Assembly (NCBI GenBank): GCA_043825875.1
Contig: JBDRRF010000044.1
Location: 1 to 34,946 of the forward strand
Reading direction: 5' to 3'
DNA: 34,946 bases
From: Pseudomonadota bacterium
GTDB taxonomy: Bacteria; Desulfobacterota; Desulfobacteria; Desulfobacterales; RPRI01
Position numbers and translations under genes: made by a program. Positions within the stretch are counted from its first letter, which is position 1. Each line of letters opens with the position of its first letter. Positions 1 to 24,985 of the stretch are shown in pieces. The notes below the pieces were generated by a model. That model worked only from the letters and a program-made list of their open reading frames with translations, was not told where the DNA came from and made no database searches.

Positions 1-730
1 AAATGAAAATTCATTATTTTTTGGATTTTCATTAGTCCGCAGTATTTTTTCGGTTTGCAATCTACTTTTTATGGAGAAAAAATACTACTAAACGTAGTTT
101 ATGATATTAACAACATATATAATTCTTATTTTCTATGCTGACAAATACTTATTATTATTAAACATTATACCTCTGCATCAAAAATTGTAGATTCTTCTAC
201 AACTTCTTCTGCTCTTCAGTAAAGCTGAGCGCAAAAAATAATCGCCTCTAAAACATTCAAACACCATGATTCTCCAAAATACCTTATCAAAGAATCATAG
301 ATTCAACCCATATCTCGGGCTCTGTTAAATGTTCTCTCTCCAAACAACTTGAAAAACTCAACCCGTTTTTGCTAAGAGAAAACATGGATAAAAAACTGAA
401 ATAATCTTTTCCGTTAACAACGGGCTTGAGTAACATCTTTTATAAGCCAACATTATCTATATATTACTCAGCATTTTGTAACATTTATTTATGATGTAAC
501 TGGGAACTAAGAGTGATAGATTTTATGCTATCGGAAATAGCGTAAGCTGACGAAAGGCTTGAGAATTGCCTGATAGCTAAGCTTCAGTTATAAAGAAGTA
601 TACTGAGGGCTTATTTAATTGCTGCTTTCAGGAAGCTATACTGGTAGTATCAAAAATACAGCCTAAGAACCTTACACGACTAAACAGAACAGATTTATGG
701 CAATCAACATTACATTGGTGTTTTATAATA

Positions 731-771
731 AAAAAAGCGCTTCTGTTTTTAATAATCAGAAGCGCTTTTTT
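731..771. terminator. Bidirectional intrinsic terminator downstream of the NuoF-like gene
   Basis: Perfect inverted repeat aaaaaagcgcttctg (731-745) / cagaagcgctttttt (757-771) with A/T tracts on both sides, 26 nt after the stop of 798..2423(-). Confidence 0.85.
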
Positions 772-797
772 GTTAACAGTATTATATCATAATCAAA

Positions 798-2423
798 TCA
801 TGATTCAGGCATATGACAAACACCGGCAGGACATTTTTTTTCATTGATATGCGCTTCGTATTCATGTCTGAAAAAACGAAGTGTTGTAATAACCGGGTTC
901 GGAGCGGTTTTTCCTAAAGCGCAAAGAGATGTCTTTGCAACCGCTTCACCGATTTCAAGCAGCATATCTATGTCTTCCGGCTGGCCTTTGCCCTTCGATA
1001 TATCATTTAATATATCAAACATCTGCTTAGTTCCAAGCCTGCATGGTATGCACTGCCCGCAAGATTCTCTTTGTGTGAAATCAAGAAAATATCTTGCCAC
1101 ATCAACCATACAGGTTTCTTCATCCATAACTACGATACCACCGGAACCCATTATTGATCCTGCATCATTTAGCGAATCGAAATCAACGGGAAGATCGAGC
1201 AGATGTTCGGGAAGGCAGCCACCTGAAGGGCCACCGGTCTGAACCGCCTTAAATTTTTTGCCATCGGGTATTCCCCCACCGATTCCGAATATAATTTCCC
1301 TAAGCGTAATTCCCATAGGAACTTCAATCAAGCCGTTGTTTACTACTTTACCGGTAAGAGCAAGTATTACTGTACCCTTGCTTTTTTCGGTGCCCATGCT
1401 TGAAAACCAATCGGGTCCGTTATGAATTATCTGGGGAATATAAGCCAGTGTTTTAACGTTGTTCAGTAAAGTCGGTTTGTCCCAGAGGCCAACTTCAGTA
1501 GTACGGGGACGGGGAGATGCCTTGGGCATTCCGCGTTTTCCTTCTATGGAAAGAACCAGAGCAGTTGACTCTCCGCAAACAAAAGCACCAGCTCCCTGAA
1601 AAACTTCAATGGTGAAATTAAAATCGGTTCCCAATATTTTTTTGCCGAGAAATTTCTTTCTCTTTGCCTTTGAAATAGCAGTTCTTAAACGCTTAACGGC
1701 AAGAGGATATTCAGCCCTTACATATATATAGCCTACTTTAGCGCCAATAGCATATCCGGCGATCACCATTCCTTCAAGAAGTGAATGCGGTGTTCCTTCA
1801 ATAACCGAACGATCCTGAAAAGCTCCTGGATCACCTTCATCGGCATTGCATATAACGTATTTAACATCCCCTTCTGCTTTATAGCAGGCTTCCCATTTGC
1901 GTCCTGCAGGAAAACCGGCGCCGCCAAGACCGCGAAGCCCTGAACGTTTGACCTCATCTATAACCTGTTCAGGTGTCATGGTGGTTAGAACTTTTTCCAG
2001 CGCCTTATAACCGTCTGCGGCTAAATAATCATCGATATTTTCAGGATCTATATGCCCGCAGTTTTTCAGTAGTGTACGCTGTTGTTTGTTGTAAAATGGG
2101 ATATCATTGTAATGGGGCAAAACTTTATCGGTAACAGGGTCGCGGTAAAAAAGGCGTTCAACAGGTTTGCCACCGTCTGTAAGTGATTGAGCAATTTCAG
2201 CAGTATCTTCAGTGGTCACATGAGAGTAAAAAGTCCCCTCAGGTTCAATAACTACAAGAGGGCCTCTCTGGCAAAAACCATGGCATCCGGTTTGTTTAAC
2301 TAAAACGGTATCTCCTAAATTATGTTTTTCAACTTCTTCCTGCAATGAAGAAAGAATTACTTCAGATCCTCCAGATATACAACCTGTACCCTGGCAAACA
2401 ATTATATTATGCTTATGGGACAT
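798..2423 (-). CDS. NuoF/HydB/HoxF-like NAD(P)H-binding FMN/Fe-S flavoprotein, stand-alone
   Basis: N-terminal thioredoxin-like [2Fe-2S] domain (CQGTGC...GCHGFC), GLRGLGGAGFP, CNADEGDPG, GAGAFVCGE, SLBB GGPSGG, [4Fe-4S] CGQCIPC...C and a C-terminal H...CPAGVC. RBS GGAGG upstream. Confidence 0.9.
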   Translation of the reverse strand: MSHKHNIIVCQGTGCISGGSEVILSSLQEEVEKHNLGDTVLVKQTGCHGFCQRGPLVVIEPEGTFYSHVTTEDTAEIAQSLTDGGKPVERLFYRDPVTDKVLPHYNDIPFYNKQQRTLLKNCGHIDPENIDDYLAADGYKALEKVLTTMTPEQVIDEVKRSGLRGLGGAGFPAGRKWEACYKAEGDVKYVICNADEGDPGAFQDRSVIEGTPHSLLEGMVIAGYAIGAKVGYIYVRAEYPLAVKRLRTAISKAKRKKFLGKKILGTDFNFTIEVFQGAGAFVCGESTALVLSIEGKRGMPKASPRPRTTEVGLWDKPTLLNNVKTLAYIPQIIHNGPDWFSSMGTEKSKGTVILALTGKVVNNGLIEVPMGITLREIIFGIGGGIPDGKKFKAVQTGGPSGGCLPEHLLDLPVDFDSLNDAGSIMGSGGIVVMDEETCMVDVARYFLDFTQRESCGQCIPCRLGTKQMFDILNDISKGKGQPEDIDMLLEIGEAVAKTSLCALGKTAPNPVITTLRFFRHEYEAHINEKKCPAGVCHMPES

Positions 2424-2678
2424 ATTAACATTACCTCCTCAATAAAAATCTCTTTGAGACCTTTTGACCGATTAGGGCTAATATTGCAATACAACATGTA
2501 TTTTTGCGGATAAAAATTGCCCTTAATTGAGACTGAGCAAAATTTAACGCTTCTTATGGTCTCACTTTAAAATCAAAAAGAAAAATCTGTTATGCAATCT
2601 TGCTCAAAGCAGGACTTTTGATAAAAATCAAGTAATACTTTATTTTGAAATATTTTTTTTTGTATTTCCGGAATAGAA

Positions 2679-2715
2679 TTGAAGCGCCTTGCTGCAAACA
2701 GCAAGAAATCTTCAA
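2679..2715. repeat. Imperfect palindromic element (REP-like or IS200/IS605-end-like remnant)
   Basis: ttgaag-cgc-cttgctg-caaa-cagcaag-aaat-cttcaa: nested stem with a 4-nt loop. The family assignment is by resemblance only. Confidence 0.35.
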
Positions 2716-2865
2716 CTATAACAACTTGAGACCTTTACATAATATGTGATTTTGCACGATTAGTATTATTTGTTAGAAAGAATATGAAGTTCTTTAATAC
2801 CTTTGTTAAACTTATGCAAAATCAGCCATTATATATAAGATCCGGCTTATGAGTGGTTTTAGATT

Positions 2866-2895
2866 GCTAACCCTGCATACAAATGCAGGGTTAGC
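2866..2895 (-). terminator. Strong hairpin after the OYE pair (terminator or 3' stabiliser)
   Basis: Perfect 13-bp stem gctaaccctgcat-acaa-atgcagggttagc, 45 nt after the stop at 2941. There is no clear U-tract on the minus strand. Confidence 0.55.
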
Positions 2896-2940
2896 TCTTG
2901 CTTTTGCGGTTTATGTGTTACAACTGCTTATAAATATAGG

Positions 2941-4899
2941 CTATATCTTTAAGGCTGTCATATAGCCGTCCATTATGGCATCTTTTACTCTTCCGGGTTT
3001 ATTGGAATCGCCGATTCTATGTACTGAAACTTTTCCTTCAAGCTCTTTTGCAAGGGCATGTTCCGATTTATAACCGGCAGCAACTACTATTGTATCGCCT
3101 TCAAAAAATGCTTCATTTGGTCCGTATTGAAAAGTTGTCCGTTCTCCCCACACTCCATATTCCGTGATTCGGGTAACCATAAGATCGGTTTCCATCTGAA
3201 GTTTTGCTTTTTTCAATCGCATCATCAAATCAAATCTCAATGCGCGGGGCACATCACTGGCAACACGCGGAAGCATTTCCAGCATAACCATTTTCTTACC
3301 CTTTTGAAGCAGAAATTCTGCAACTTCGCATCCAACCATACCACCGCCGATAATAACCGTCATATCTCCGACTTCTTTTTTACCCATGAGCACGTCAGTA
3401 CCTAATATTACGTTAGATTTTGCCATGCCCGGAACTTTTGGTATAAAAGGTTTTGTCCCGGTTGAGATAATGACTTCATCCGGATTCATTTCAAATACAT
3501 CGCTTAAAGTCGCTGCCTTGCCTGTTTTAAGTTCTATGCCGCTTTTTGCGATTTGTGTACGATAATAATCGACAAGATATTGAGTGTCTTCTTTATGCGG
3601 TGCAACAGCTGCCACTGCGAGCATACCGCCGACCTTATCCTGTTTTTCCATCAAAGTTACATCATGGCCTCTTTGTTTGGCAACAAGGGCAGCTTCCATA
3701 CCGCCAGGTCCGCCACCTACTATAAGAATCTTTTTAGCCTTTTTTGCTTTAGGCGGTTCTTCACTGTACTGATATTCAATGCCTAATCTGGGATTTACGC
3801 TGCAAATGCACGGAGTATCAACAGTTTCAAGACACCATGCACAGCACATACACGGACGGATATCTTCAAAACGGCCTTCTTTTGCTTTATTGCATGTTGC
3901 AGGATCGGAAAGCAACTGACGGCCAAGAGTCATAATATCTATCTTGCCTTCGCTTATTGCTTTTTCCGCATCTCTTAAATCATTGGTTCTGTCTCCGCAG
4001 ATTATAGGAATCTTAACATTTTTCTTTACAGTTTCACCAAGATATAAATACTGTCCTGGTCTTACCGAATTGCTGAGCATTCCGACAGGAGCTTCATGCC
4101 AGCCTACAACAACATCTACTGCGCAAATTCCCATGTCTACGAGTCTGGGAACGATTTCTGTTGCGCATTCTTCCAGGGTATATCCGTGTTTAGTAAACTG
4201 GGCTCCTGAAATTTTTGCTAAGATCGGAAAATCACTGCCTGCGTGATTTTTTATGCTTTCAATGATTTCACGAATAATTCTCATTCTGCCGTCAAGATCT
4301 CCGCCGTACTCATCGGTTCTCTTGTTTGTTTCGGTAGAAATAAAGCGGGCAAGCGTATAACCTGCGCCAAGCATCAGCTCAACACCGTCAAAACCGGCCG
4401 TTCTCAGTCTCTTTGCGCATTGACCATAAGTTTCGACAATTATCTGGATTTCCTGGATGGTTAAAGGTCTTTCAAGAAGTCTTTTCGCATTTGTTGGAGT
4501 ACCAACCCTAAACGGTGTGCTGGGTCTGCCAAGAAGATTTACTCCTGAAGGACCTATTATTTCTACAGGACCATCACCAAAAGCCCAACCATAACCTGTT
4601 CCGAACTGCCCGACAATTTTGGTACCGTGTTTATGAACGGCATCAACTGTCATTGCAAGGCCGGGGATAAACTTATCATCATGGGTCCATGGGAAATAAC
4701 CATGTTCAGTTCTGTATGGCCATAATGCCCAATCTATAATACCGACACCGCCTTTGGCTCTTTCTTCAAAAAACCGCGCGAAACGCTCAGTTGAACGTCC
4801 GTCTTCAGCATAACCGAGTGCCATCGGAGACATCCGCACCCTGTTTTGTATCTCGATGCCGTTTATATTTATTGGACTGAATACATTTTTAAGAGTCAT
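2941..4899 (-). CDS. Old Yellow Enzyme, FadH (2,4-dienoyl-CoA reductase)-type FMN/FAD/[4Fe-4S] oxidoreductase with intact NADH-binding motif
   Basis: TIM barrel start FSPININGIEIQNRVRMSPM, GAGYTLARF, NKRTDEYGG, GWHE, Cys cluster CMCCAWC...CSVNP, FAD motif GGGPGG and second Rossmann motif IGGGMVG. Confidence 0.9.
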   Translation of the reverse strand: MTLKNVFSPININGIEIQNRVRMSPMALGYAEDGRSTERFARFFEERAKGGVGIIDWALWPYRTEHGYFPWTHDDKFIPGLAMTVDAVHKHGTKIVGQFGTGYGWAFGDGPVEIIGPSGVNLLGRPSTPFRVGTPTNAKRLLERPLTIQEIQIIVETYGQCAKRLRTAGFDGVELMLGAGYTLARFISTETNKRTDEYGGDLDGRMRIIREIIESIKNHAGSDFPILAKISGAQFTKHGYTLEECATEIVPRLVDMGICAVDVVVGWHEAPVGMLSNSVRPGQYLYLGETVKKNVKIPIICGDRTNDLRDAEKAISEGKIDIMTLGRQLLSDPATCNKAKEGRFEDIRPCMCCAWCLETVDTPCICSVNPRLGIEYQYSEEPPKAKKAKKILIVGGGPGGMEAALVAKQRGHDVTLMEKQDKVGGMLAVAAVAPHKEDTQYLVDYYRTQIAKSGIELKTGKAATLSDVFEMNPDEVIISTGTKPFIPKVPGMAKSNVILGTDVLMGKKEVGDMTVIIGGGMVGCEVAEFLLQKGKKMVMLEMLPRVASDVPRALRFDLMMRLKKAKLQMETDLMVTRITEYGVWGERTTFQYGPNEAFFEGDTIVVAAGYKSEHALAKELEGKVSVHRIGDSNKPGRVKDAIMDGYMTALKI

Positions 4900-5067
4900 T
4901 TCAATCCTCCTTTTAAAATAGAATTCTCCTTCCCGGTCTTATACGTATATGCTGCCGGAAAGGAGATAATATATATCATAATTGACTATAAGAAGCTGTT
5001 TAAATGACCTGATATTAATATGTTGGCCATGTATCATAAAGGCAGCTTCAATACACATGGCTTGTAA

Positions 5068-7044
5068 TTAAATCTTTACACCCATTTTATAGCCGTCATG
5101 AATTGCTTCATAAAGTTTTCTTACTCCTGCACAATCGCCAATGGAGTATACTTCCGGAGCTATTGTGGTACCAACGGCTTTTGCAAGTGCATCTTCTGAA
5201 TCCATGCCTTCGGCTACAACTACAGTGTCAGCTTCAATACTTACATCTTTTCCGCCTGCAGTAGAAATTTCAACACCGTCGTCAGTAATTTCATTAACTG
5301 TAACATTGGTCATACTCTTCATATTTAGTTTGGCCATAAGTCTTCTATGTTGAAGAATATTGAAGATGTTAACGTCAAAGCAAATGTGCTTGCCTTTTTC
5401 CAGAATAGTAACTTCTTTACCCTGCTCAGCAACATACTCTGCCGTTTGAATAGATATTTCATTGCCGCCTATAAATACGACTTTGTCACCTAATTTAACT
5501 TTTCCTTCAAGAACGTCAAATACGTTTGTAACTATTTTACTGTCGATTCCGTCTATTTTAGGTCTGGAAGGTTTGCCGCCTGTAGCAATTACAAGAACTT
5601 CCGGAGCTTCTGCCTTAATGGAATCTGCGGTAGCTTCGGTATTAAGTTTTAACTTGATTCCAAGTTTCTCAATCTGTGCTTTGTAATAACGAATTGTTTC
5701 AGCCCAATCATAAAGCAGGGGCGATTTTACACCCAATTTTACTTCTCCACCAATAGAATCGCTTTTTTCTACTATTGTTACATCATGTCCTCTGATTGCT
5801 GCAAGCCTGGCGCATTCCATACCGGAAGGACCGGCGCCGATAATAAGTACTTTCTTTTTCTTCGCAGCAGGATTGATAGCATATGCTGGATCCCATTCAT
5901 TTCCTACTCTTGGATTTATCATACAACCCATGACAGCATCAATGAATACGTAGTAAAAGCAGCCCTGGTTACATGCGGTACAGGTATTAATATCTTCAGG
6001 ACGTCCTTCGGTAACTTTTTGGGGAAGATAAGGATCGGCAATACCGGGACGGCACATTTCCCAAATATCTATTCTTCCATCTGCAACTGCTTTTTCAGCT
6101 ACATCGGGTTGATTCATACGATAAGCCATACAAATAGGAGCTTTGATTTTGGCTTTTTTCCATTCATCTGCAAGATGCAGCCAGTCACCGGGTCTTTTCT
6201 CAGCAGTAATTGCAGCACCCGGAGATTCATGCCAGCCTACAGTAATACTGAAAAGGTCAATCCTAACAGCAGCTTCGCACATTTTGGCAATTTCAATATA
6301 TTCTTCGTTGGTATTTCCGCCTTCGATAAGGTCTGTGGCGTTGAGCCTCATAACAAGAGGATAATCATCTCCAACTTCCTTTCTGATTCCTTTTAAAATT
6401 TCAATAAGGAATCTTGCCCTGTTTTCAAGTGAGCCGCCCCACTTATCTGTTCTTTTATTTGTCCATCTGCTCAAGAAATCAGCAATAAGATATCCAACTA
6501 TTGCGCATACCTCAACACCGTGCCATCCGGTTTGTTTAAACATTCTGGCAGCAACTATATGAGCTTGAATCTGCTCTTCTATTTCTTCATTAGTCATCTC
6601 ACGGCAGGGTGAATAACGTTTTATCGGGCTTGACATTGCTGTTGGTCCGACAGGCTCGGGACCGACTGTCTTGCCTCCGGCGATTGCTTCATGGATGCCA
6701 TATTCATGGGCATGACCATATCTACCGGTATGCATAATCTGTCCTATTGACATAGCACCTTCAGCATTAATTGCATCGGCCAACACCTTAAGGCCGGCAA
6801 GATGGCTTTCTTCTACCAGGCCCATCTGGCCTACATAGCCTTTACCCAGAATATGGGTATATCCACCCTGAGAAACCACGATACCAAAACCGCCTTTTGC
6901 TCTTTCTCTAAGGTATTCTATCTCACGATCAATAACATTACCATTTTTCGTATCACAGAAATTATCAACAGTTGCGGCATATTTCATTCTGTTTTTTACT
7001 TCATGATTTCCAATTTTAATGGGCTTACACAAATTTTCAAACAT
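5068..7044 (-). CDS. Old Yellow Enzyme, FadH-type FMN/FAD/[4Fe-4S] oxidoreductase with degenerate NAD(P)H site (candidate aryl-CoA reductase)
   Basis: KPIKIGNHEVKNR, VGYLIADFLS, NKRTDKWGGSLENRARF, GWHE, CTACNQGC...CMINP and FAD motif GAGPSG. The second Rossmann motif reads IGGNEIS. RBS AGGAGG upstream. Confidence 0.9.
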   Translation of the reverse strand: MFENLCKPIKIGNHEVKNRMKYAATVDNFCDTKNGNVIDREIEYLRERAKGGFGIVVSQGGYTHILGKGYVGQMGLVEESHLAGLKVLADAINAEGAMSIGQIMHTGRYGHAHEYGIHEAIAGGKTVGPEPVGPTAMSSPIKRYSPCREMTNEEIEEQIQAHIVAARMFKQTGWHGVEVCAIVGYLIADFLSRWTNKRTDKWGGSLENRARFLIEILKGIRKEVGDDYPLVMRLNATDLIEGGNTNEEYIEIAKMCEAAVRIDLFSITVGWHESPGAAITAEKRPGDWLHLADEWKKAKIKAPICMAYRMNQPDVAEKAVADGRIDIWEMCRPGIADPYLPQKVTEGRPEDINTCTACNQGCFYYVFIDAVMGCMINPRVGNEWDPAYAINPAAKKKKVLIIGAGPSGMECARLAAIRGHDVTIVEKSDSIGGEVKLGVKSPLLYDWAETIRYYKAQIEKLGIKLKLNTEATADSIKAEAPEVLVIATGGKPSRPKIDGIDSKIVTNVFDVLEGKVKLGDKVVFIGGNEISIQTAEYVAEQGKEVTILEKGKHICFDVNIFNILQHRRLMAKLNMKSMTNVTVNEITDDGVEISTAGGKDVSIEADTVVVAEGMDSEDALAKAVGTTIAPEVYSIGDCAGVRKLYEAIHDGYKMGVKI

Positions 7045-7235
7045 AATAATTACTCCTCCTTTTGTTAATATTAATTCAATGTTGTATTAGAAAACAGAAA
7101 AAATGGTCACCTTTATAAAAACACAATTAGGATGACTAACTATCTTAAAAAACCCTAAATACCATGATTTGCCAAAGGAACCGGTTAAAGGTGGCCATAT
7201 CTACAGAAGATCCGGGTTTTGCAGCATATAAAAAG

Positions 7236-7281
7236 CGAACAAGCGTTCGTTCTTAATACCTCAGGTATTAATTTACGTCAA
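7236..7281 (-). promoter_or_regulatory. Putative promoter of the OYE pair overlapped by two palindromic operators
   Basis: Minus strand TTGACG (7281-7276), 17 nt, TATTAA (7258-7253). Palindromes ttaatacct-c-aggtattaa (7253-7271) and cgaac-aagc-gttcg (7236-7249). Confidence 0.5.
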
Positions 7282-7400
7282 GGAAAAAAAAGTATCAAGA
7301 GCTATTTGAATATTTGACGGAATAAATTTGATAATATCATAAAAAACCCATTAATTTTCATTTATTTCAATATGATATATAAACAGATCCAAAATTATTT

Positions 7401-9068
7401 TTAAGCATTGGTGGATGCCTGCTCTCCGGCAACATATCCGGATGTATAAGCCAGATGACAATCGGCAAGTACCGATCCTCCCATCATATTTTCGCCTATA
7501 GCCCCTCCTGCCGTATGAAAGGCTGCATAAAGACCGGGTATCACAGAGCAATTTGTATCCAAAACCTGAAAGTTTTCATTAACCCGCAGACCGCACTGAC
7601 TGGCTCCTATATTTGAACCTACCTTTATGCCATAAAACGGGGGATTCTTAATCGGAATAAGAAATTCGGTTTTTTTCCCGAATTCATGATCAACACCTGC
7701 TTCACATGTCTTATTGTAGCTAACGACTCTTTCTTCAAACCTGGCCGGGTCAAGCTCCAGCTTTTGTGCAAGCCCTTCTATGGTCGGGTCTGTTTTTATC
7801 ATTTCCAGATCAATAGCTTTTTTTACTGCTATTCGCCAGTCTTTCGGGCATATGCTTTCATTCCATTTATCCATTCCTGGAAGATCCGGCGTAAGGGCAT
7901 GTTCACAGAATTCTCCTTTAAAAATACCAATATTATTTTCATAATCATTATCGAATATCACATAGGCTCGGCCTCCGGGCTGGGACATAATGGCCGACCC
8001 TTTACTTATGAATCCCATTTGCAAAGCGGATGGGTCTTCATTTATAAATCTTTCGCAGCTTTTATTTATGAAAAGCCAGGGTTGCCTTGATAACTGCACA
8101 TCTCCTGAGTAAAGATAGCGGTAAAAAGAGCCGGTTTTTTCAAAGTAAGGTATTCCTCCATCAAAAATTGAAATGGAGTTTACCCCGGCAATATCCGCAC
8201 CTGCACCAAGCCCCATACGGAATACACCACCCATTGCAGACGGCATATCCATGGATGCCCCACAGCCTATGTAAGCTTGAGGAATATAGATTTTAAGCAA
8301 TTCACGGTTGTTGGACAAACCGCCTGCGGCAAGAATAACGCCTTTTTTGGCTTTCAGATACATATATTCTTTGCCTCTTCTTACTTTAAGTCCTACAATC
8401 CGGTTATCTTTTTTCACCAGAGCGGAAGCATGCGTTTTAAACAGGTATTTTACACCTTTTTCCCTGCCCAGCTTTTCAAGCAAGTCGGTTACGTCTTTTT
8501 GCGCCATTAGCCAATGTTTATCCAACGTTCCTTTAGGTACATGACAATTGGGCATATTCCAAAGAGTCATTACTTCCCATTCTATACCAAGATCCTCTAT
8601 CCAATCCATAGTTTCAGCGCCTTTATATAGGATGGTACGGAGCAGATGGGGATTTATCGAATAATTGGAACCGGCCAGAGCCATATTGTAAATTACTTCC
8701 ATCGGCGGAAGATTGATATCATTCATGCGCTTTTGGGCTTTACTTCCAAAACATATTGCTCCTGTGGCATGCTGGGTGGCACCGCCGGTCTCAGCTCCCA
8801 TTTCAATCAGAATTACAGAAGCACCTTTTTGTGCTGCACGAAGAGCAGCGGCCAGGCCGGCCCCACCGCCGCCAACAACTATCAGATCAGCTTCATCATC
8901 CCACTTATCGGGTTCTTTGACAGGCAAGATCGGATCAGTCTTGGCTGAAACCGGTTTTTTAGATTTTTCACCTGTTTTAACAGAATATATCATTCCCGTT
9001 AGTCCGGGCGGGGGTGAACTAACAGAAACACAATCTTTTTCTTCTTTACCAATACTATTTTTACTCAT
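7401..9068 (-). CDS. FAD-dependent oxidoreductase, FAD_binding_2 family (flavocytochrome c flavin subunit / KstD / TcuA-like)
   Basis: WDDEADLIVVGGGGAGLAAA, GVILAAGG, PPFYG, GLRVNENFQVLD and IPGLYAA. No Tat motif. The fumarate-reductase catalytic motifs are not conserved. Confidence 0.85.
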   Translation of the reverse strand: MSKNSIGKEEKDCVSVSSPPPGLTGMIYSVKTGEKSKKPVSAKTDPILPVKEPDKWDDEADLIVVGGGGAGLAAALRAAQKGASVILIEMGAETGGATQHATGAICFGSKAQKRMNDINLPPMEVIYNMALAGSNYSINPHLLRTILYKGAETMDWIEDLGIEWEVMTLWNMPNCHVPKGTLDKHWLMAQKDVTDLLEKLGREKGVKYLFKTHASALVKKDNRIVGLKVRRGKEYMYLKAKKGVILAAGGLSNNRELLKIYIPQAYIGCGASMDMPSAMGGVFRMGLGAGADIAGVNSISIFDGGIPYFEKTGSFYRYLYSGDVQLSRQPWLFINKSCERFINEDPSALQMGFISKGSAIMSQPGGRAYVIFDNDYENNIGIFKGEFCEHALTPDLPGMDKWNESICPKDWRIAVKKAIDLEMIKTDPTIEGLAQKLELDPARFEERVVSYNKTCEAGVDHEFGKKTEFLIPIKNPPFYGIKVGSNIGASQCGLRVNENFQVLDTNCSVIPGLYAAFHTAGGAIGENMMGGSVLADCHLAYTSGYVAGEQASTNA

Positions 9069-9139
9069 TCCTGATTCCTCCTGTTTTTTACAAAATAATG
9101 GCTTTTTTAGAAGCCATCATACATATAATTTTGCGGCAT

Positions 9140-11221
9140 TTATTCTTTTTTGGGGCTGATTTTACAAAGCAGTGCTTTAAGAGCCGGGTAACCTGTTACC
9201 GGATCTACGGATTTTTCATCCGTAAGTGCATTCACATTATGTTTGGCCCAGCCATGAGGAATACTTAAAGTGTTCGGAAGAATATCTTCCGTAGTTTTCG
9301 CCTTGATCTCAATTTTACCCCTTTTAGTTTCTACTATCATCAGCTCACCATCGTTGATACCATAAAGCTTAGCAGTTTCCGGGTGAATTTCTCCATTAGG
9401 TTCGGGCATTTTTTTCTTAAATTTTTCAATCTCCCTGAAAGATGAGTGCGTATATTGGAGTGTTCTTGATCCTGTAGTAAGAATTACCGGGTATTCTTTT
9501 GCAAGCCCGGGAGAACCGAAAGGAGATTCTGTCGGTTCATTGTAAACCGGCAAAGATTCCAACCCGAGTTGCTTCATAACGGAAGAAAATATTTCAATCT
9601 TACCCGAAGGTGTTTTAAACCCTTCTTTCTCATACTGTTTATACTTTATTTCTCCAAAGGGTATGCAATTGGTTTTGCCAAATAATGTTTTAAGATCCAG
9701 CCCCGTCGGTCCGTAGCTGTATTCAAGCAATTCATTCATATCTTTCCATGGGAAGTACTTTTCATATCCCATACGTTTAGCCAGTTTGATCCAGATTTCC
9801 GGATTAGGCATACTCTCATAAAAACCAATAGCTTTATTGCGCAAATTTATAAACGGTTTGGCAAAAGAGATTGAGAGAATTTCCCAGATTTCAGTTCTTT
9901 CCAAAAAGCTTGCTTCAGGCAGAATAAGATCTGCCAGCTGAGCTGTTTCATTCATTGTTGTCAGTATAACAGCTAAAAAATCCAGTTTTTCTAAAGCGCT
10001 TCTCATCTTGTTGGTATTTGGCCAGGTTAAAAGCGGGTTTGACCCAACTACTGCAAGGCCTTTAATGGGATAAGGTTTACCGGTTAATATCATATCTGGT
10101 AACAACATTCCCTGTGCCGTCCAGCCGCCCTGAACCAGAATCGGAAATTGTTCCTGTCCCATAGGTGGCTCCTTGGGAGTGTCTGCTAATCTAAGCGGTG
10201 AACAATTTGCAACAGAAGGAATCTCAGGTCCGCCAAGATCAACAGCAAGCAGGCCTCCGGCAATATCGATATTTGCAGTAATTGATTGCAGAATCAGTAT
10301 TGCTCTCTGGCTTTGAAATCCTGTTGGAACCTGCTGCAGCGTATTAATTCCTTCTAAAATACAAGCCGGTTTATTGGCTGCATATAGATGAGCCATGCTT
10401 CTTATGATCTTTTCGGGAACCAAAGTTATTTTTTCGATTTTTTCCGGAGGATAAGCTTTTATATGCTCAGCAAATTCATCAAAACCGGTTGTCCATTTTT
10501 CAACAAACTGCGTATCATATAAATGATCTGAAATGATTACATTTAACATAGAAAGTGCTAAAGCACAATCTGTACCGGGTCTTATTTGAGCATGGATGTC
10601 AGCTTTTTTTGCGAAAGAAGTCTTGCGGGGATCAATCACAATTAGTTTTGCGCCCTTCTTCTTAGCATTCATAATCTGCTCGGCGGTTATAAAATTGGAT
10701 TCGGAAGGATTATGTCCCCATAAAATAATGCATTTGCTGTTTTCAGGATCAGCTGCCGGAAATTTACCAAGAGTCAGCATATTGGCTGTAATACGTGACA
10801 GGTAGCACATGCTTTCCGGAGTTATGAAATTCGGGCTCCCGTAAGCATCACAAAATCTTTGGAGCAAGGTCATGGAAGTAAATCCCTGGCATACAAATGA
10901 CATACCTTCCAAAACGGCCCAGGATTTTGCGCCGTAATTCTCCTTTATTTTGTTCAACTCAGTAGCCATAATATCTAATGCTTCATCCCATGAAATTCTT
11001 TGAAATTCTCCGTTAACTTTCTTCATTGGATATTTGATGCGATCGGGAGAATATACATAATCTATAATACCTGCTGCTTTGGGACAAAGTTTTCCATGAT
11101 TCCAGGGATGATCGGGATCTCCTTCTATCTTGACAGCCTTTTCATTTTCAACCGAAACAATTATTCCGCAAGCCCAGGGACACATTCCGCATAATGTTTT
11201 AATTTCTTTTCGGTTAGTCAT
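9140..11221 (-). CDS. Mo/W-bisPGD oxidoreductase (DMSO reductase superfamily), cytoplasmic single subunit
   Basis: N-terminal [4Fe-4S] CGMCPWAC...LCPK, RISWDEALD, putative Cys metal ligand (ESMCY), WGHNP, IRPGTD, ADLILP and C-terminal HSS...IHPETA domain. No signal peptide. Confidence 0.9.
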   Translation of the reverse strand: MTNRKEIKTLCGMCPWACGIIVSVENEKAVKIEGDPDHPWNHGKLCPKAAGIIDYVYSPDRIKYPMKKVNGEFQRISWDEALDIMATELNKIKENYGAKSWAVLEGMSFVCQGFTSMTLLQRFCDAYGSPNFITPESMCYLSRITANMLTLGKFPAADPENSKCIILWGHNPSESNFITAEQIMNAKKKGAKLIVIDPRKTSFAKKADIHAQIRPGTDCALALSMLNVIISDHLYDTQFVEKWTTGFDEFAEHIKAYPPEKIEKITLVPEKIIRSMAHLYAANKPACILEGINTLQQVPTGFQSQRAILILQSITANIDIAGGLLAVDLGGPEIPSVANCSPLRLADTPKEPPMGQEQFPILVQGGWTAQGMLLPDMILTGKPYPIKGLAVVGSNPLLTWPNTNKMRSALEKLDFLAVILTTMNETAQLADLILPEASFLERTEIWEILSISFAKPFINLRNKAIGFYESMPNPEIWIKLAKRMGYEKYFPWKDMNELLEYSYGPTGLDLKTLFGKTNCIPFGEIKYKQYEKEGFKTPSGKIEIFSSVMKQLGLESLPVYNEPTESPFGSPGLAKEYPVILTTGSRTLQYTHSSFREIEKFKKKMPEPNGEIHPETAKLYGINDGELMIVETKRGKIEIKAKTTEDILPNTLSIPHGWAKHNVNALTDEKSVDPVTGYPALKALLCKISPKKE

Positions 11222-11316
11222 AATACTTCTCCTTCCATGGCACTATATATTTATCATTTTTTATTAATTATAGCTGACAACTTTAAACAGAATAGTATAA
11301 TAACCCTCCTCTTAAT

Positions 11317-11591
11317 CCCATAAGCGCTATGTTGACTGATTAAGTTTATCTATAAAAACGAATATCGAATATAGAACAAGGAATTTCGAATTATGAATAT
11401 TTTTTATTCTTACTCATTGCGATTTTAATACTTTTAACAAATATTGATTATTCTCACAGCAAAATCTATCAAACGATCATAGATATCATACCGTTTATCT
11501 TCCTTCGATATTCATTATTCCTTGTTCTATATTCGAAATTCAAATTACTTTCATATATTTGTTATAGATTAATTAACTTAGCGCTTATGGG
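11317..11591. repeat. 275-bp nested inverted-repeat (MITE-like) element
   Basis: Outer 13-bp IR cccataagcgcta (11317-11329) / tagcgcttatggg (11579-11591). Inner perfect 20-bp IR tcgaatatagaacaaggaat (11365-11384) / attccttgttctatattcga (11517-11536). Confidence 0.75.
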
Positions 11592-11601
11592 GTATTACAA
11601 C

Positions 11602-12354
11602 TCACGGCATACTGACACCACCATCAACAGAAATAGTCTGGCCTGTAATAAATGAAGCTTCATCCGAAGCCAGAAGTATAGCAATTGCTGTGTAATCATC
11701 AACTGTGCCGGTTCTGCGCATCGGTGTCATGTTAATCATAAAATTAATGTCTTCCTGAGGAAAATTGGTCGTTCGGAAGGTGCTGGTTTCAGGAGTTAAG
11801 CCGCATGCGATAGCATTCACATTTATCCCGAGAGGACTGAGTTCAGCCGCCATAGCCCGTGTCATAGCAAGCATAGCGCCTTTGGTTCCTACATAATCCG
11901 AATACATCGGCACTCCTATTCTTGCTGTGGATGAGCATATTCCTATGATTTTACCATATTTTCTTTTAAGCATTTCTCTTGCTACAAGCTGGGTGCAGAA
12001 AAAAACTCCCTTTTGATTTACTGCTACCACCCGATCAAAAGCGGCCTCGTCTTTTTCAAGAAATAGACCCGGTGTATAGACACCCGCATTGTTAATAAGA
12101 ATATCTATCTTAGAAAATCTTTCTATGGTTTTATTAACCATATTTTTTATATCTGCTATAACGGATACATCCGATTTTAAGGCAAGTACATCCCGCCCGT
12201 ATGCTTTAATATCTCGCTCTGTTGCCGTAAGCCTTTCTTCAACAAGGTCTGTAATAACGATATTTGCGCCTTCTTTTGCCATCGCAAGCGCAATAGCTTT
12301 TCCTATGCCTGAGCCCCCGCCGGTGATGATCGCAACTTTGTCTTTTAATTTCAT
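11602..12354 (-). CDS. Short-chain dehydrogenase/reductase (FabG-like)
   Basis: TGGGSGIG, NNAG, YVGTK and ITGQTISVDGG. Start moved to ATG 12354 (MKLKDK) because GAGGAG lies just upstream and the longer ORF overlaps the next gene. Confidence 0.9.
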   Translation of the reverse strand: MKLKDKVAIITGGGSGIGKAIALAMAKEGANIVITDLVEERLTATERDIKAYGRDVLALKSDVSVIADIKNMVNKTIERFSKIDILINNAGVYTPGLFLEKDEAAFDRVVAVNQKGVFFCTQLVAREMLKRKYGKIIGICSSTARIGVPMYSDYVGTKGAMLAMTRAMAAELSPLGINVNAIACGLTPETSTFRTTNFPQEDINFMINMTPMRRTGTVDDYTAIAILLASDEASFITGQTISVDGGVSMP

Positions 12355-12394
12355 TTTGTGCTCCTCGCCTTCACCCATAACCTTCTGAAAGAAT

Positions 12395-12417
12395 GGGGCG
12401 TTGCTATACGACCCTAC
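12395..12417 (-). repeat. Degenerate GTAG-type REP between the SDR genes
   Basis: Minus strand reads GTAG-GGTCG-TATAGCAA-CGCCCC, an imperfect hairpin preceded by GTAG. Confidence 0.4.
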
Positions 12418-12433
12418 GAACCCCAAACAAAAA

Positions 12434-13171
12434 TCAACCCGCGCTTCTTCCTCCATCTATAATATATGTAGCTCCTGTTATGTGAGATGCTTCATCCGAT
12501 GCAAGAAAGAGTGCCAGAGATGCTACTTCGTCCGGTTCGCATAATCTTCCCATGGGTATTTGTGATACGAGAGTTTCTAAAAATCCCGGTGGGGCATCAT
12601 CGAATATGGGCGTTTTGACAGCACCCGGACAGACGGCATTTACACGGATGCCGTCATTTACATATTCGAGAGCCGTTGCACGTGTAAGCATATTAATTGC
12701 TCCTTTTGTGGCAAGATATGCCGATACCATAGGGCTTGCCCGAAAAGCACCGATTGAACTTGTATTAACGATGGAACCGCCGCCGCACTCAAGCATAAGC
12801 TCAATTGAATTTTTCATAACAAAGAATGCACCACGTAAATTAACGTTCATTACTTTATCCCACTCTTCAATACTGTATTCATGCAGGCGTTTTGGAGCGA
12901 TGTTTATTCCGGCATTATTGCATAAAATATCAAGTTTACCAAAATTTTTACGGCATTCATTTATCATATTGGAAACCTGATCGGGTCTGCTTACATCACA
13001 TTCAAAAGGAAATACTTCTCCCTGTGCTTCTACGGAAACTTTTTTTTCGCTGCCGTCAATATCAACCGCCATTACCTTTGAACCTTCGGAGGCAAATCTT
13101 AACGTAATTGCCCTGCCGATGCCCGAACCGGCACCGGTAACAATAGAAATTTTATTGTCCAATCGTCTCAT
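12434..13171 (-). CDS. Short-chain dehydrogenase/reductase (probably NAD-preferring)
   Basis: TGAGSGIG, Asp at the end of beta-2 (AVDID), NNAG, YLATK, GIRVNAVCPG and IIDGG. Confidence 0.92.
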   Translation of the reverse strand: MRRLDNKISIVTGAGSGIGRAITLRFASEGSKVMAVDIDGSEKKVSVEAQGEVFPFECDVSRPDQVSNMINECRKNFGKLDILCNNAGINIAPKRLHEYSIEEWDKVMNVNLRGAFFVMKNSIELMLECGGGSIVNTSSIGAFRASPMVSAYLATKGAINMLTRATALEYVNDGIRVNAVCPGAVKTPIFDDAPPGFLETLVSQIPMGRLCEPDEVASLALFLASDEASHITGATYIIDGGRSAG

Positions 13172-13186
13172 TTTAATAGCCTTTAT

Positions 13187-13301
13187 TTATCTGGTTGAAA
13201 GAAGTCCACCATCTATCGGATGCCCCATTAAGCACTATACCATCCAAGCCCGCTTCCCTGGCAAACGCAGCTGAACGGGTAAAAGCTTTAACAGTTGCCT
13301 T
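13187..13301 (-). pseudogene. Remnant of a third SDR gene
   Basis: Manual translation: 13301-13227 gives KATVKAFTRSAAFAREAGLDGIVLN. A different frame at 13219-13187 gives PIDGGLLSTR-stop. Both resemble SDR motifs. Confidence 0.6.
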
Positions 13302-13564
13302 GTTTAATATTTGATCTAAATATTGGAATATGGCCGATAGCAAGATCAACCATTATCTCCAAGATAACAACTCCAGAAGAAGTATGGCTATAAAAAGCTT
13401 CGATTACAGTCAAGTATTGACTAAAACGAATAACATACTATTTTCATAATATTATCTTTGGTTCTCTTGTAAAAAGCAATTATAATTGACAACCATAATT
13501 AACCAAATATAAATTTTAAGCTGACTATTCACTTAATTGTATTGATATAAAGAATATATCCTCA

Positions 13565-13798
13565 ATGACTGTCTTGCTACGAAAAACAATTACGTCGGAT
13601 AATATCACGTTTTATAAGTTACTTGGGCAACTTATTAAGTATTATCGGAAATGGCGTGGGTTGAGCCAGGAAAAATTCTCCGAGCTTGTAGGAATCAGCC
13701 TTAGAGAATTGCAAAATTGGGAAATGGGACGTTGCCGGGCACGTATCAAAAATCTTCACGACCTTTCGGAAGCATCCGGAATTCCCAGGCAGGTTTAG
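13565..13798 (+). CDS. XRE-family HTH protein, short and possibly truncated
   Basis: LGQLIKYYRKWRGLSQEKFSELVGISLRELQNWEMG is an HTH_3 pattern. The ORF stops immediately after the last helix (GIPRQV). Confidence 0.7.
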   Translation: MTVLLRKTITSDNITFYKLLGQLIKYYRKWRGLSQEKFSELVGISLRELQNWEMGRCRARIKNLHDLSEASGIPRQV

Positions 13799-13989
13799 AC
13801 GCTTTTTGGACTTTTGCCAAAAAAAATGCCCTTCGAAAAAGAGCAGCTATCTGGCTTGAAATAAAAAAAGATCGGCATGGAGAATGAAAGTATTGATTTC
13901 AACCACATAATAAATATATTATAGATAAATGCATTTAAACTGTAGCAGCGGGAAGCTTCAACAAATAAACACTTTTTTAGGGTTAATCT

Positions 13990-14427: not shown

Positions 14428-15165
14428 TTATTCTTTTATACTGTTTATGATTTTTCCTTTTGTGCTTATCACGATTTGTTCCATAGGCACTTTAACACCC
14501 GATTGATCCATTCCTTTTTTCACTATCATTGGCAAACCGGAACAGCACGGAACTTCCATTATTACTGTTGTTACACTTTTTATTCCGGCTTCTTTGAAAA
14601 CCTGTGCAAATTTGTTGATGTATTCATCGGCATCATCAAACTTGGGACATCCCATCATTACGGCTTTTCCTTTAAGAAAATCCCTGTGAAGGCTTGGGAA
14701 AGATACGGGCACGCAATCTGCCAGAACAAGTAAATCCGCTCCTTTCAAAAAAGGTGCTTTTGCCGGAACCAGTTTAATTTGTACAGGCCAGTGGCCAAGA
14801 GTAGATTCTTCATTTTGTGCTTGCGAAGAAGAACTGCCGGTATCAGGACAGGACAGGATTTGAACTGTAGAAGATGGGCAACCACACGCTAAAGCAGGTT
14901 CTGCCGCTATTTTTTTCTTATTTTCATGAAGTTGCTTTTCAACAGCCTCTTCATCAAACTCTTCCGCATCTCGCTCTATAACCTTTAAAGCACCGGTCGG
15001 ACATTCTCCGAGACAGGCTCCGAGTCCGTCACATAGTTTGTCTGATATTACTTTTACTTTTCCGTCAACTATCTGAAGCGCTCCTTCCGCGCAGGATGGA
15101 ACGCACTGCCCGCAGCCGTCACAAAGCTCGTCATCTATTTCTATTATTTTTCGGGTAACTTTCAT
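14428..15165 (-). CDS. 2x[4Fe-4S] ferredoxin-domain protein of the hcp operon
   Basis: CDGCGQCVPSC and CDGLGACLGEC, then CGCPS, WPVQIKLV, GCPKFDD and MEVPCC. Confidence 0.85.
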   Translation of the reverse strand: MKVTRKIIEIDDELCDGCGQCVPSCAEGALQIVDGKVKVISDKLCDGLGACLGECPTGALKVIERDAEEFDEEAVEKQLHENKKKIAAEPALACGCPSSTVQILSCPDTGSSSSQAQNEESTLGHWPVQIKLVPAKAPFLKGADLLVLADCVPVSFPSLHRDFLKGKAVMMGCPKFDDADEYINKFAQVFKEAGIKSVTTVIMEVPCCSGLPMIVKKGMDQSGVKVPMEQIVISTKGKIINSIKE

Positions 15166-15184
15166 AACTGATCCTCATTTATGC

Positions 15185-15913
15185 CTATTTTAATAAGACC
15201 TCACGCGCGATAATTTTGCCGTTTTCGGTCAAAAAAGATTTTTCGATTATTTTAGTTATATAATCCTTATCAGCAGGTTTTTCCTTATGATTGTCCTCTA
15301 TATTGACAATTACATCAGCATCGTAAACAACCTTATAATTAATATTGTCATCAGGCCGGGGGTGATGATGATGACCTACTATATCGCATACCTCATCGAT
15401 TAATTTCTCATTTGCACCAAGCTTTATAAGAATTTCCCTTGCAATAGGCGGCCCAAGCTCTTCCTGATATTTTGGGGCCGTGCTGTTATATTTACGTTCA
15501 GCCTCGGTTATTCCTATATCGTGAAGATAAGCAGCTGCCAAAATTACTGCAAGATTTCCTTTCTCAAGTTTGCCGATTCTTTCGGCATACCGGGCAACCT
15601 TTGAAGCATGACCGATTCTTTTAAAATCGGTCTTAAAATATCGCTTCATTTCTATAGCAACCCTGTCTTTTAATAAATCTTCTTTTTTGGCAAGAAGCTC
15701 ATCGGGCAGTGTTCCAAGGCATTGCTCTGCGTATTCACAGTAAGACGCACATCCAAAATCCATTTTAGGGTTAATAAATCTGTGGCCGCAGTTACCACAT
15801 TTTCTTGCTGTATCATCTTTGAAAAATTCAACTTTACTACCGCATTTGGGACAGGTTTCATCAAATATGGCTCCCTGCTTCCAATACCGGCTGTCCTGCC
15901 CTGGACATTTCAT
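15185..15913 (-). CDS. HD-domain protein with Cys-rich N-terminal domain
   Basis: MKCPGQD, CPKC, CGNC, CASYC...C, followed by H...LHD...HHH...D. Start set at ATG 15913 behind GGAGG. Confidence 0.85.
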   Translation of the reverse strand: MKCPGQDSRYWKQGAIFDETCPKCGSKVEFFKDDTARKCGNCGHRFINPKMDFGCASYCEYAEQCLGTLPDELLAKKEDLLKDRVAIEMKRYFKTDFKRIGHASKVARYAERIGKLEKGNLAVILAAAYLHDIGITEAERKYNSTAPKYQEELGPPIAREILIKLGANEKLIDEVCDIVGHHHHPRPDDNINYKVVYDADVIVNIEDNHKEKPADKDYITKIIEKSFLTENGKIIAREVLLK

Positions 15914-15952
15914 ATATTCCTCCAACAAAAATTAATTTTAAATTGTATCTAT

Positions 15953-16013
15953 GGCGGCATATAAAATGCCGCCCTACGCATGACAATAGTAGGGCGGGGT
16001 TTTACACCCCGCC
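15953..16013. repeat. Inverted pair of 25-nt GTAG-type REPs
   Basis: Minus 15977-15953 GTAG-GGCGGCAT-TTTAT-ATGCCGCC and plus 15989-16013 GTAG-GGCGGGGT-TTTAC-ACCCCGCC. Confidence 0.8.
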
Positions 16014-16036
16014 GCAATTCTTATTCTCTAATAGCG

Positions 16037-17665
16037 TTATCCCAATATTGCCTTTAAATCCTCATCAGGAGTTTTTATAGGCATGATATTAAATTTCTCC
16101 ACCAGCACATTTAAAATATTAGGTGTTATAAAAGCCGGAAGACTTGGCCCAAGCCTGATATCTTTTATTCCAAGATAAAGCAGGGTCAACAGAATCGCAA
16201 CTGCTTTCTGCTCATACCAGGACAGTACCATAGAAAGCGGAAGATCGTTTACACCACAATCGAAGGCTTTCGATAAAGCAACTGCAATCTGAACGGCAGA
16301 ATATGCATCATTGCACTGACCAACATCAAGAAGCCTTGGTATGCCGCCAATATCTCCAAGATCCTTGTCAAAAAAGCGGAACTTGCCACAGGCAAGAGTT
16401 AAGACCACACAATCCTTAGGGACTTTTTCGACAAACTCGGTATAGTAATTACGTCCCGGCTTTGCTCCGTCGCAGCCTGCAACTAGAAAGAAATGTCTTA
16501 TTGCCTTTGACTTAACAGCGTCAATAACCTGCCCTGCGACTCCCATAACGGCGTTTCTTGCAAATCCTACCATAACACTTTTGCCGTTGGTATCATTTTC
16601 AAATCCTTGCATACCCAGTGCTTTGTTTATAACCGAAGTAAAATTTTTATCAGCTATATGTGTTACACCGGGCCAGCCGACAAGACCGGTAGTAAAGATA
16701 TTGTCTTTGTAAGCATCTTTCGGCTTTTGAATACAGTTTGTTGTCATAAGTATTGTACCGGGAAACTCGGCAAATTCTTTTGCCTGGTTTTGCCATCCCG
16801 TTCCGTAGTGTCCATACAAATGTGAATACTTTTTAAGCCCCGGATAACCGTGGGCAGGAAGCATTTCCCCATGGGTATAAACATTTATTCCCTTGCCTTC
16901 GGTTTGTTTCAGTATTTCTTCCAGATCCTTTAAATCATGACCTGAAACAAGTAATGCTTTTCCTTTTTTTGCACCTAAAGGCACTTTTGTAGGAACAGGG
17001 TGTCCGTAAGCACCGGTATTAGCGGTATCCAAAAGCTCCATTGCAAGAAGATTCGCCTCGCCGCATCTTAAAACAAGGCCTACTAGTTCATCAGCGCCCA
17101 GATTTTTATTTAATCCGGCAGCAAGAGCTTCATAAATAAATTGATATACTTTATCATCACTTTTTCCTAATATTCTTGCATGGTCAGCATAGGCTGCAAC
17201 ACCCTTTATTCCGTACGTTAAAATCTGTTGCAGAGACAAAATATCAGGGTTGATATCAGGATCGCTTTTTGCCCCAACTTTTTCTCCCTGTTTTATAAGG
17301 CCTTCGATTGTTTTTTCAGGAACAAAAACTGCCGGGCCTTCTGAATAAACGGGTTTAATTCCGGCTGCTGCAAGCTTTGCTTTAAGTGAATCACGAATAA
17401 TGACACATTGATCAATAAGTTTTTGAAATCTTGCAGGGTCAAAATCCACATTTGTTAATGTTGAAAAAACTGCCTCACAGGTAAATATATTTATTTCATC
17501 ATCTTTAATATTCGCTTTATATCCTTCGATAGCATACAAAGATAATCCTCTTACCACATAAATCAGAAGATCCTGCAAAGCTGCTACTTCAGAGCTTTTA
17601 CCGCATACGCCCCCTATTGTACATCCCTCTCCTTTTGATGTCTGCTCACATTGGTTACAAAACAT
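16037..17665 (-). CDS. hcp: Hybrid cluster protein (hydroxylamine/NO reductase)
   Basis: MFCNQCEQT...C...VCGK, SGHDL, YTHGEMLPAH, TTNC, GCDG, LACGK, GQCND and SWYEQKA. Confidence 0.97.
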   Translation of the reverse strand: MFCNQCEQTSKGEGCTIGGVCGKSSEVAALQDLLIYVVRGLSLYAIEGYKANIKDDEINIFTCEAVFSTLTNVDFDPARFQKLIDQCVIIRDSLKAKLAAAGIKPVYSEGPAVFVPEKTIEGLIKQGEKVGAKSDPDINPDILSLQQILTYGIKGVAAYADHARILGKSDDKVYQFIYEALAAGLNKNLGADELVGLVLRCGEANLLAMELLDTANTGAYGHPVPTKVPLGAKKGKALLVSGHDLKDLEEILKQTEGKGINVYTHGEMLPAHGYPGLKKYSHLYGHYGTGWQNQAKEFAEFPGTILMTTNCIQKPKDAYKDNIFTTGLVGWPGVTHIADKNFTSVINKALGMQGFENDTNGKSVMVGFARNAVMGVAGQVIDAVKSKAIRHFFLVAGCDGAKPGRNYYTEFVEKVPKDCVVLTLACGKFRFFDKDLGDIGGIPRLLDVGQCNDAYSAVQIAVALSKAFDCGVNDLPLSMVLSWYEQKAVAILLTLLYLGIKDIRLGPSLPAFITPNILNVLVEKFNIMPIKTPDEDLKAILG

Positions 17666-17743
17666 GACTTATTCCTCCTTCTTTATATTTGTTATGGTTT
17701 ATTAACTTTTGAGCTTATAATACATATTTTGAAATGGCTTTAC

Positions 17744-17759
17744 CTTGACTTATGTCAAG
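17744..17759. promoter_or_regulatory. HcpR (Crp/Fnr) binding site
   Basis: Perfect palindrome CTTGAC-TTAT-GTCAAG between divergent hcp and hcpR. It matches the TTGAC-N4-GTCAA type of HcpR box. Confidence 0.85.
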
Positions 17760-17791
17760 AAAAAGACAATATTTTTGAAAAAGGAGAATAC

Positions 17792-18481: not shown

Positions 18482-18574
18482 AAATTATTATACCATACAT
18501 GATATAAGAACGTTATCATAAAACTGATGTTTGGTGCAGGAAAACAAATTAATATTTAAGAATTTAAAAAAATC

Positions 18575-24333: not shown

Positions 24334-24338
24334 TAAAT

Positions 24339-24973: not shown

Positions 24974-24985
24974 ACACAAAGGATA

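Follow-up and report, generated by a model that had tools for sequence, protein, structure and literature searches.

Close orthologues of the N47 2-naphthoyl-CoA reductase pair in a genome in which N47-type entry genes were not found

The window analysed here is a 34,946-nucleotide (nt) stretch (contig JBDRRF010000044.1, positions 1 to 34,946 of the forward strand; assembly GCA_043825875.1) from a bacterium of the Desulfobacterales, and the element under study is a pair of genes on its minus strand that encode Old Yellow Enzyme (OYE) family members. The upstream gene, ncr (5068..7044), encodes a 658-amino-acid (aa) type III aryl-CoA reductase, orthologous by sequence comparison to the 2-naphthoyl-CoA reductase (NCR) of Desulfobacterium sp. 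N47, a sulfate reducer that breaks down the naphthalene ring anaerobically (N47_G38220; PDB 6QKG), and the downstream gene, dhncr (2941..4899), encodes a 652-aa protein of the N47_G38210 type, a predicted dihydro-2-naphthoyl-CoA reductase (DHNCR). The two are read in the same direction with 168 nt between them. Their products are three-domain long-form OYEs (PF00724 and PF07992, with a [4Fe-4S] cysteine motif) that share 35.4% identity (227/641), in agreement with a first-pass annotation that had placed two tandem, divergent FadH-type OYEs at exactly these positions. The NCBI gene call for ncr (P0006) has 670 aa and an in-frame ATT start at 7080; we favour the ATG at 7044 as the probable start, because a Shine-Dalgarno-like AGGAGGAG can be read 8 nt before it (7053..7060, minus strand).

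Each motif feature named in the first-pass annotation is present. The 658-aa protein carries KYAAT at residue 21, the catalytic Tyr (Y185), GWHE at 270 and, at residues 526-531 (5452..5469), GGNEIS, which comparison with N47 NCR (PMC6502838) marks as a degenerate pyridine-nucleotide motif; the same comparison equates its Trp447 (5704..5706) with W459 of N47 NCR. The 652-aa protein carries Y181, GWHE at 266, an intact GxGxxG in the form GGGMVG at residues 518-523 (3331..3348; identical in N47_G38210) and MLEM at 539, and a motif check found no HxxH/N-x-Y in either sequence. The motif reasoning thus proved sound, with some narrowing. The lack of HxxH/N holds for both proteins but is not distinctive, E. 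coli FadH (MGSEGY) being likewise without it; KYAAT is indeed found where VMAPM was expected, but VMAPM is not universal (LMGSMH in E. coli FadH). GGGMVG and MLEM, taken together as a sign of NADH use, are both there, but the acid of MLEM was rejected as a diagnostic, because NCR has an acid at the same place, following the second Rossmann strand (ILEK in the 658-aa protein, with E549 invariant in 28 NCR-clade sequences).

By exact look-up, the 658-aa and 652-aa proteins and the 541-aa product of the next gene downstream share 90% clusters with N47_G38220 (CBX28498.1), N47_G38210 (CBX28497.1) and N47_G38200, with global identities of 95.0% (625/658), 91.7% (598/652) and 93.0% (503/541), respectively. 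The N47 record has the same gene order (ncr, dhncr, NuoF-like third gene), and GGNEIS, KYAAT and GGGMVG are found unaltered in the N47 enzymes. Against PDB 6QKG, the 658-aa protein scored 1447.5 bits over residues 1-658, with FadH next at 334 bits. We compared it with 35 residues named in PMC6502838: 33 are identical, which is every one that can be checked (catalytic, pocket, FAD-site and donor-site), and at the other two, H84 and Y166, the N47 sequence itself differs from the named residue and the window protein agrees with N47. None of its 33 substitutions relative to N47 NCR (PDB 6QKG/6QKR/6QKX) falls at a named residue.

The NAD(P)H site of the 658-aa protein is blocked as in N47 NCR, with W447, N528, E529 and I530 in place. 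According to PMC6502838, W459 of N47 NCR blocks the NADPH site that FadH has, and N540, E541 and I542, which correspond to N528, E529 and I530 within GGNEIS, lie on the FAD re-side at a proposed donor docking hollow. The low-potential FMN environment and the proton relay are also conserved (V38, R245, E341, F375/F379/F573, Y197, H284, Y82 and Y320 in N47 numbering); the same source has E341, V38 and the Phe cluster lowering the FMN potential. The substrate pocket, described there as having little spare room, is identical in the window protein. The 652-aa protein shares MSPM, MLGAGY, GWHE, GGGMVG and MLEM with N47_G38210 and lies directly downstream of ncr, but has 54 substitutions; no solved structure of high identity was found for it, and the fold of its model (predicted local distance difference test score, pLDDT, 92.4) matches NCR best (TM 0.92).

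We aligned 148 rows: homologues of at least 600 aa (shorter matches were dropped), both N47 proteins and four more OYEs from the window genome. The Trp is present and the second Gly of GxGxxG lost in all 38 rows at least 51% identical to the 658-aa protein, and GGG[M/L]VG is kept in all 26 rows at least 60% identical to the 652-aa protein. The phylogeny proposed in the first-pass annotation was built from 44 rows (43 of the 148 aligned ones and E. coli FadH, without Apr sequences). Each window protein was the sister tip of its N47 counterpart (SH-like approximate likelihood-ratio test, SH-aLRT, 100), the NaphS2 proteins EFK07533.1 and EFK09283.1 (65-66%) grouped inside the DHNCR clade, and FadH lay outside both clades. 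The three-domain fold common to all these enzymes, and the rank of FadH (1PS9) as second-best solved relative of both proteins, would allow the pair to be ordinary FadH-type 2,4-dienoyl-CoA or enoate reductases; the FMN/[4Fe-4S]/FAD architecture, the Tyr, the GWHE His and the lack of HxxH/N are common as well. However, E. coli FadH shares 34.6% identity with the 658-aa and 31.4% with the 652-aa protein, where their N47 counterparts share 95.0% and 91.7%, and both proteins score under every cut-off of the long-OYE NCBIfam models (BaiCD, mycofactocin OYE, bilirubin reductase). The open NADPH site, moreover, is that of FadH, whereas the 658-aa protein carries the blocking Trp. We rejected this identity on the low identity, the separate clade and the Trp, and give it next to no probability.

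The pair belongs to the same ATP-independent class of OYE ring reductases as NaphS2's type III aryl-CoA reductases (NPH_5475/1753, NPH_5476) and the phenanthroyl-CoA reductases AprB-E from TRIP_1; PMC13365417 gives AprD and AprE as just 34-37% similar to the N47/NaphS2 enzymes. Four further long OYEs in the window genome (contigs C41, C31 and C3) have the NAD motif replaced by DGGE- or DET-type sequences and form a clade of their own.

We compared 17 genomes of the genus, including the window genome (G000; 4.77 Mb, 118 contigs, 99.81% complete) and N47 (G017). The window genome carries dsrA, scoring over the cut-off, and the organism is likely a Desulfobacterium-type sulfate reducer. It also holds a complete thn operon (G000:C111:13256-36519), in which all 22 N47 open reading frames (ORFs) are found collinear at 82-99% identity; gene names follow Table 1 of PMC12016498, matched on order and type, and three of the queries were verified as N47 bzd-type subunits and BzdV. 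In the same five of the 17 genomes (G000, G012, G015, G017 and G020), which are kin and not independent samples, ncr and thnC co-occur, each at 95% or more. Groundwater runs X1, possibly a source run, and X2 each yielded one contig on which ncr, dhncr and the NuoF-like gene lie together. Downstream of the thn operon (L077:10695-15990, on contig C111) lie tandem large ORFs with CxxxCxxC radical-SAM-like motifs, possibly, to judge from their translations, a maturation cluster for ribosomally synthesized and post-translationally modified peptides.

For N47 NCR, PMC6502838 describes one-electron input at the FAD, a [4Fe-4S] relay, cooperative two-electron loading of the FMN, hydride transfer to C6 and a proton from Y197 to C5 (E0' -493 mV); in that account the enzyme works with dithionite or Ti(III), not with NAD(P)H. 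The N47 and NaphS2 DHNCRs reduce 5,6-dihydro- to tetrahydro-2-naphthoyl-CoA according to the review PMC12016498, which gives E0' -375 mV and NADH as donor for the N47 step and has the purified enzymes preferring dithionite. By orthology, we take the window pair to be the counterparts of these characterised enzymes and not mere lookalikes, and it is very probable, given the unchanged active-site residues, that both N47 activities transfer to the window proteins. The earlier proposal of an aryl-CoA reductase paired with a dihydro-aryl-CoA reductase for sequential ring reductions is borne out by the 95.0% and 91.7% identities. Its caution that the substrate cannot be read from the sequence can be lifted: the near-identity to the N47 pair, the conserved residues, the gene order, the thn operon and dsrA together make a predicted series readable, from 2-naphthoyl-CoA through 5,6-dihydro- to tetrahydro-naphthoyl-CoA. 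The ncr-dhncr pair, a near-copy of characterised N47 enzymes, is therefore an already known system and brings no new mechanism, the structure and mechanism of NCR being described and DHNCR already assayed.

With its NAD(P)H site closed off by Trp447 and GGNEIS, NCR in the window organism would take up single low-potential electrons at the FAD and pass them to the [4Fe-4S] cluster and then to the FMN. Hydride transfer from FMNH- to C6, with protonation of C5 by Tyr185 under activation by His272 and Tyr70, would yield 5,6-dihydro-2-naphthoyl-CoA (E0' -493 mV), from which DHNCR would make 5,6,7,8-tetrahydro-2-naphthoyl-CoA (E0' -375 mV), probably at the NADH level. The thn operon on contig C111 may then supply the next enzymes to receive this product, an ATP-dependent class I reductase and those of beta-oxidation. 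Several points weigh against this assignment: the activities of the 658-aa and 652-aa proteins are predicted from their N47 orthologues only, the tree support comes from a quick IQ-TREE search, the donor specificity of DHNCR is taken from a review (PMC12016498) rather than from primary work, and no N47-type route to 2-naphthoyl-CoA was found in the window genome.

The entry genes that were not found, together with the short NuoF/HydB-like neighbour of the pair, weigh more than the pair itself. The first-pass annotation had proposed a genome search for UbiD carboxylase and CoA ligase genes; run with N47 queries verified by accession or cluster (N47_K27540, K27500, NmsA, N47_I06840), it returned no N47-type orthologues. 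In the window genome we did not find the N47-type UbiD naphthalene carboxylase cluster (four subunits, best 24-31%), an orthologue of NmsA (best 30-33%, to two glycyl-radical enzymes), an orthologue of the bns-cluster thiolase from the N47 nms/bns region (best 35%) or a naphthoate-CoA ligase of the N47_I06840 type (best 27-30%). It has one UbiD, beside a UbiA-like gene, against six in N47, and 12 AMP-binding matches. The two glycyl-radical enzymes, neither of them NmsA-like, are accompanied by activases (G000:C103:99072-101018 and C83:134294-136159). Among the five genomes with ncr and thn, the carboxylase subunit and NmsA occur in N47 only, and the other four lack them; G020 has a UbiD at 49% in a different gene setting, and G012 an orthologue of the ligase at 76%. 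G018 (83% complete, no ncr found) gave partial matches, for the carboxylase at 72% and for NmsA at 42%.

The simplest reading, and one that we consider fairly probable, is that the organism enters the pathway below naphthalene, at 2-naphthoate or a related acid. Our best guess for the supply of 2-naphthoyl-CoA would be uptake of 2-naphthoate and its activation by a ligase or transferase not of the N47 type. A search that left most subscription journals outside found no published account of ncr/thn genomes without the carboxylase.

Alternatively, the organism may degrade naphthalene or methylnaphthalene in the normal way, its carboxylase and nms islands having dropped out during assembly or binning. 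Its genome consists of 118 contigs, with a completeness figure that rests on marker genes only; transposase-like ORFs beside the N47 carboxylase cluster have copies in this genome, and islands of this kind frequently go missing from bins. However, this would require the joint loss of the carboxylase, NmsA, the bns thiolase and the ligase, which come from three different N47 contigs, and the gap in carboxylase and NmsA repeats in G012 (99% complete), G015 (98%) and G020 (87%), so that we regard such a loss as rather unlikely. As a check on binning, we compared the contigs of groundwater runs X1, X2 and X3 at 80% likeness with the N47 carboxylase cluster. The pieces shown were scraps of 35-114 bases that gave any depth at all in just 3, 9 and 3 of the 30 bins, respectively, whereas the same runs covered the N47 ncr-dhncr-nuoF stretch in all 30 bins. 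This fits a true absence and was not counted as evidence, since contigs can attest presence but not absence and a carboxylase less than 80% alike would escape the comparison.

The point bears on the detection of anaerobic naphthalene degradation by polymerase chain reaction, in which ncr is used as a marker (PMC5099901). If the activating enzymes are missing from most carriers of ncr in the genus, the marker reports metabolism at the level of naphthoate and not attack on the hydrocarbon.

Downstream of dhncr, on the same strand, lies the gene of the 541-aa protein (798..2423), a NuoF/HydB-like NADH:flavin Fe-S protein without the C-terminal 2[4Fe-4S] domain. The in vivo electron donor of NCR is merely assumed in PMC6502838, and this conserved and consistently shortened neighbour is a concrete candidate for its electron-supply partner, perhaps together with ferredoxin. 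The neighbourhood has been published before: PMC6849830 tabulates N47_G38200 along with the counterparts in NaphS2, and its Table 4b has NuoF-like genes flanking both NaphS2 copies of ncr; no passage on the ncr locus was found in PMC12137691. We examined 19 of 80 metagenome loci, six of which have an NCR of at least 60% and at least 5 kb downstream; a NuoF-like gene (70-98%) follows ncr in five of the six, including three that belong to other lineages (L079, L081 and L085), and is lacking in L083. It also follows ncr in L013, L014 and G012. L079 and L085 have NuoE-like and NuoG-N-terminal-like genes flanking the NuoF-like gene, which in the window stands alone.

The seven ncr-linked NuoF-like copies that we examined all lack the C-terminal 2[4Fe-4S] motifs, their sequences stopping at CPxGVC or a little beyond it; the window genome has a paralogue, on contig C28, that keeps them. 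Judged by motif mapping of positions, the 541-aa protein appears to have three of the four markers of bifurcating beta-subunits (BfuB/HydB; A/E232, M234, F367 and GGPSG in PMC7311640), in the form GAFQD (Q for M), FVCGES and GGPSG; the missing clusters are regarded as invariant in true bifurcating enzymes in PMC9304861.

It is possible, if doubtful, that DHNCR gets no NADH directly in vivo and that the NuoF/HydB-like neighbour feeds both reductases, with or without ferredoxin. The recurrence of the ncr-linked gene in the loci and genomes above, NaphS2 included, speaks for this, as do the dithionite preference of purified DHNCRs (PMC12016498) and the related AprC, for which PMC13101529 gives 40% of activity with NADH and has its authors doubting NADH as primary donor. 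Against it stand the intact GxGxxG in all 26 close DHNCR homologues and the naming of NADH for the DHNCR step in PMC12016498. The NuoF-like protein, furthermore, is without the C-terminal domain, and PMC9304861 describes non-bifurcating homologues as having no clusters B2-B5 and not interacting with ferredoxin. In the window, moreover, dhncr is parted from the NuoF-like gene by a 517-nt gap with a 13-bp perfect hairpin right after dhncr (2866-2895); in L014 the gap is just 23 nt.

Upstream of ncr, also on the minus strand, lies a cassette (7401-13171) whose link to ncr is putative. It is headed by a short-chain dehydrogenase/reductase (SDR) gene (12434-13171), followed by a second SDR gene (11602-12456, probable start near 12354), a 693-aa enzyme of the Mo/W-bis(pyranopterin guanine dinucleotide) type (9140..11221), for which acetylene hydratase (PDB 2E7Z) is the closest solved structure at 310.7 bits, and a 555-aa FAD_binding_2 flavoprotein of the flavocytochrome c / KstD superfamily (7401..9068). 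The window, G012 and G015 have the cassette intact; N47 has it in a split, truncated and partly deleted form, with just a C-terminal remnant of the flavoprotein. It was also noted at L013:6711-9532 and L066:1585-5334. As for the Mo enzyme, the four ncr- and thn-bearing genomes without the carboxylase have it whole (84-100%), and N47 has it split and truncated. An atlas search with it returned generic molybdopterin or acetylene-hydratase-family clusters only. In G020 the Mo enzyme and the flavoprotein form one 1249-aa Mo+FAD protein; as a conserved fusion this was rejected, being a single case and weak evidence: a search for longer forms among 2894 candidates gave, apart from this protein, two unrelated fusions. 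Mo paralogues of about 60% identity belong to other clusters of G012, G015 and G020, two with an OYE of their own, and have SDR, flavoprotein, OYE or corrinoid/methyltransferase genes as neighbours.

With the chemistry of the pair unchanged, the natural substrate could be a substituted bicyclic aryl-CoA, or 2-naphthoyl-CoA from an unknown route, one such route being dehydroxylation of a hydroxynaphthoate by the cassette. This would accord with the failure to find the known entry genes here, or the carboxylase and NmsA in three further ncr- and thn-bearing genomes, and with a Mo enzyme that is whole in those four genomes and broken in N47; acetylene hydratase, its closest solved relative, is named in PMC7028382 as the closest characterised relative of catechol dehydroxylases, and a 48%-identical Mo enzyme occurs in the ncr locus L079, of another lineage. 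However, in G020 a gene other than ncr comes after the cassette, and none was found in the 4.4 kb upstream of ncr in L078 or in the 9 kb upstream in L080, L081, L087 and L090; a constant linkage of the cassette to ncr is thus not supported by G020 and the metagenome loci. The Mo paralogues in other clusters and a pocket that is identical to the tight one of N47 NCR also argue against such a substrate, which we consider quite unlikely. A combined reading, in which four of the five carriers in the genus never activate naphthalene, the cassette converts an oxygenated naphthoate and the short NuoF/HydB-like protein is the donor of NCR, which would dock at the place of the missing ferredoxin domain, is very unlikely as a whole.

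Upstream of ncr homologues (67-71%) in L080 (44-6265) and L087 (562-6962) lie molybdoenzyme genes of the xanthine-oxidase family, possibly hydroxyaryl-CoA reductase-like to judge from the family alone. The window genome also has 20 HGD-D/BcrBC-type matches, many of them paired, against 11, partly fragmentary, in N47, which suggests several clusters of class I aryl-CoA reductases or dehydratases. A promoter and terminator scan of positions 600-13900 was uninformative (52 against 36.2 +/- 7.9 expected, and 13 against 11.8 +/- 4.1, respectively). Elsewhere in the window lie an Hcp (hybrid-cluster protein) cluster, which includes a Crp/Fnr-family regulator and a rubrerythrin-like gene (14428-19048), and a housekeeping run, rimP-nusA-infB-rbfA-truB-pnp-dut (19565-31401), in which NusA has a short acidic repeat at its end.

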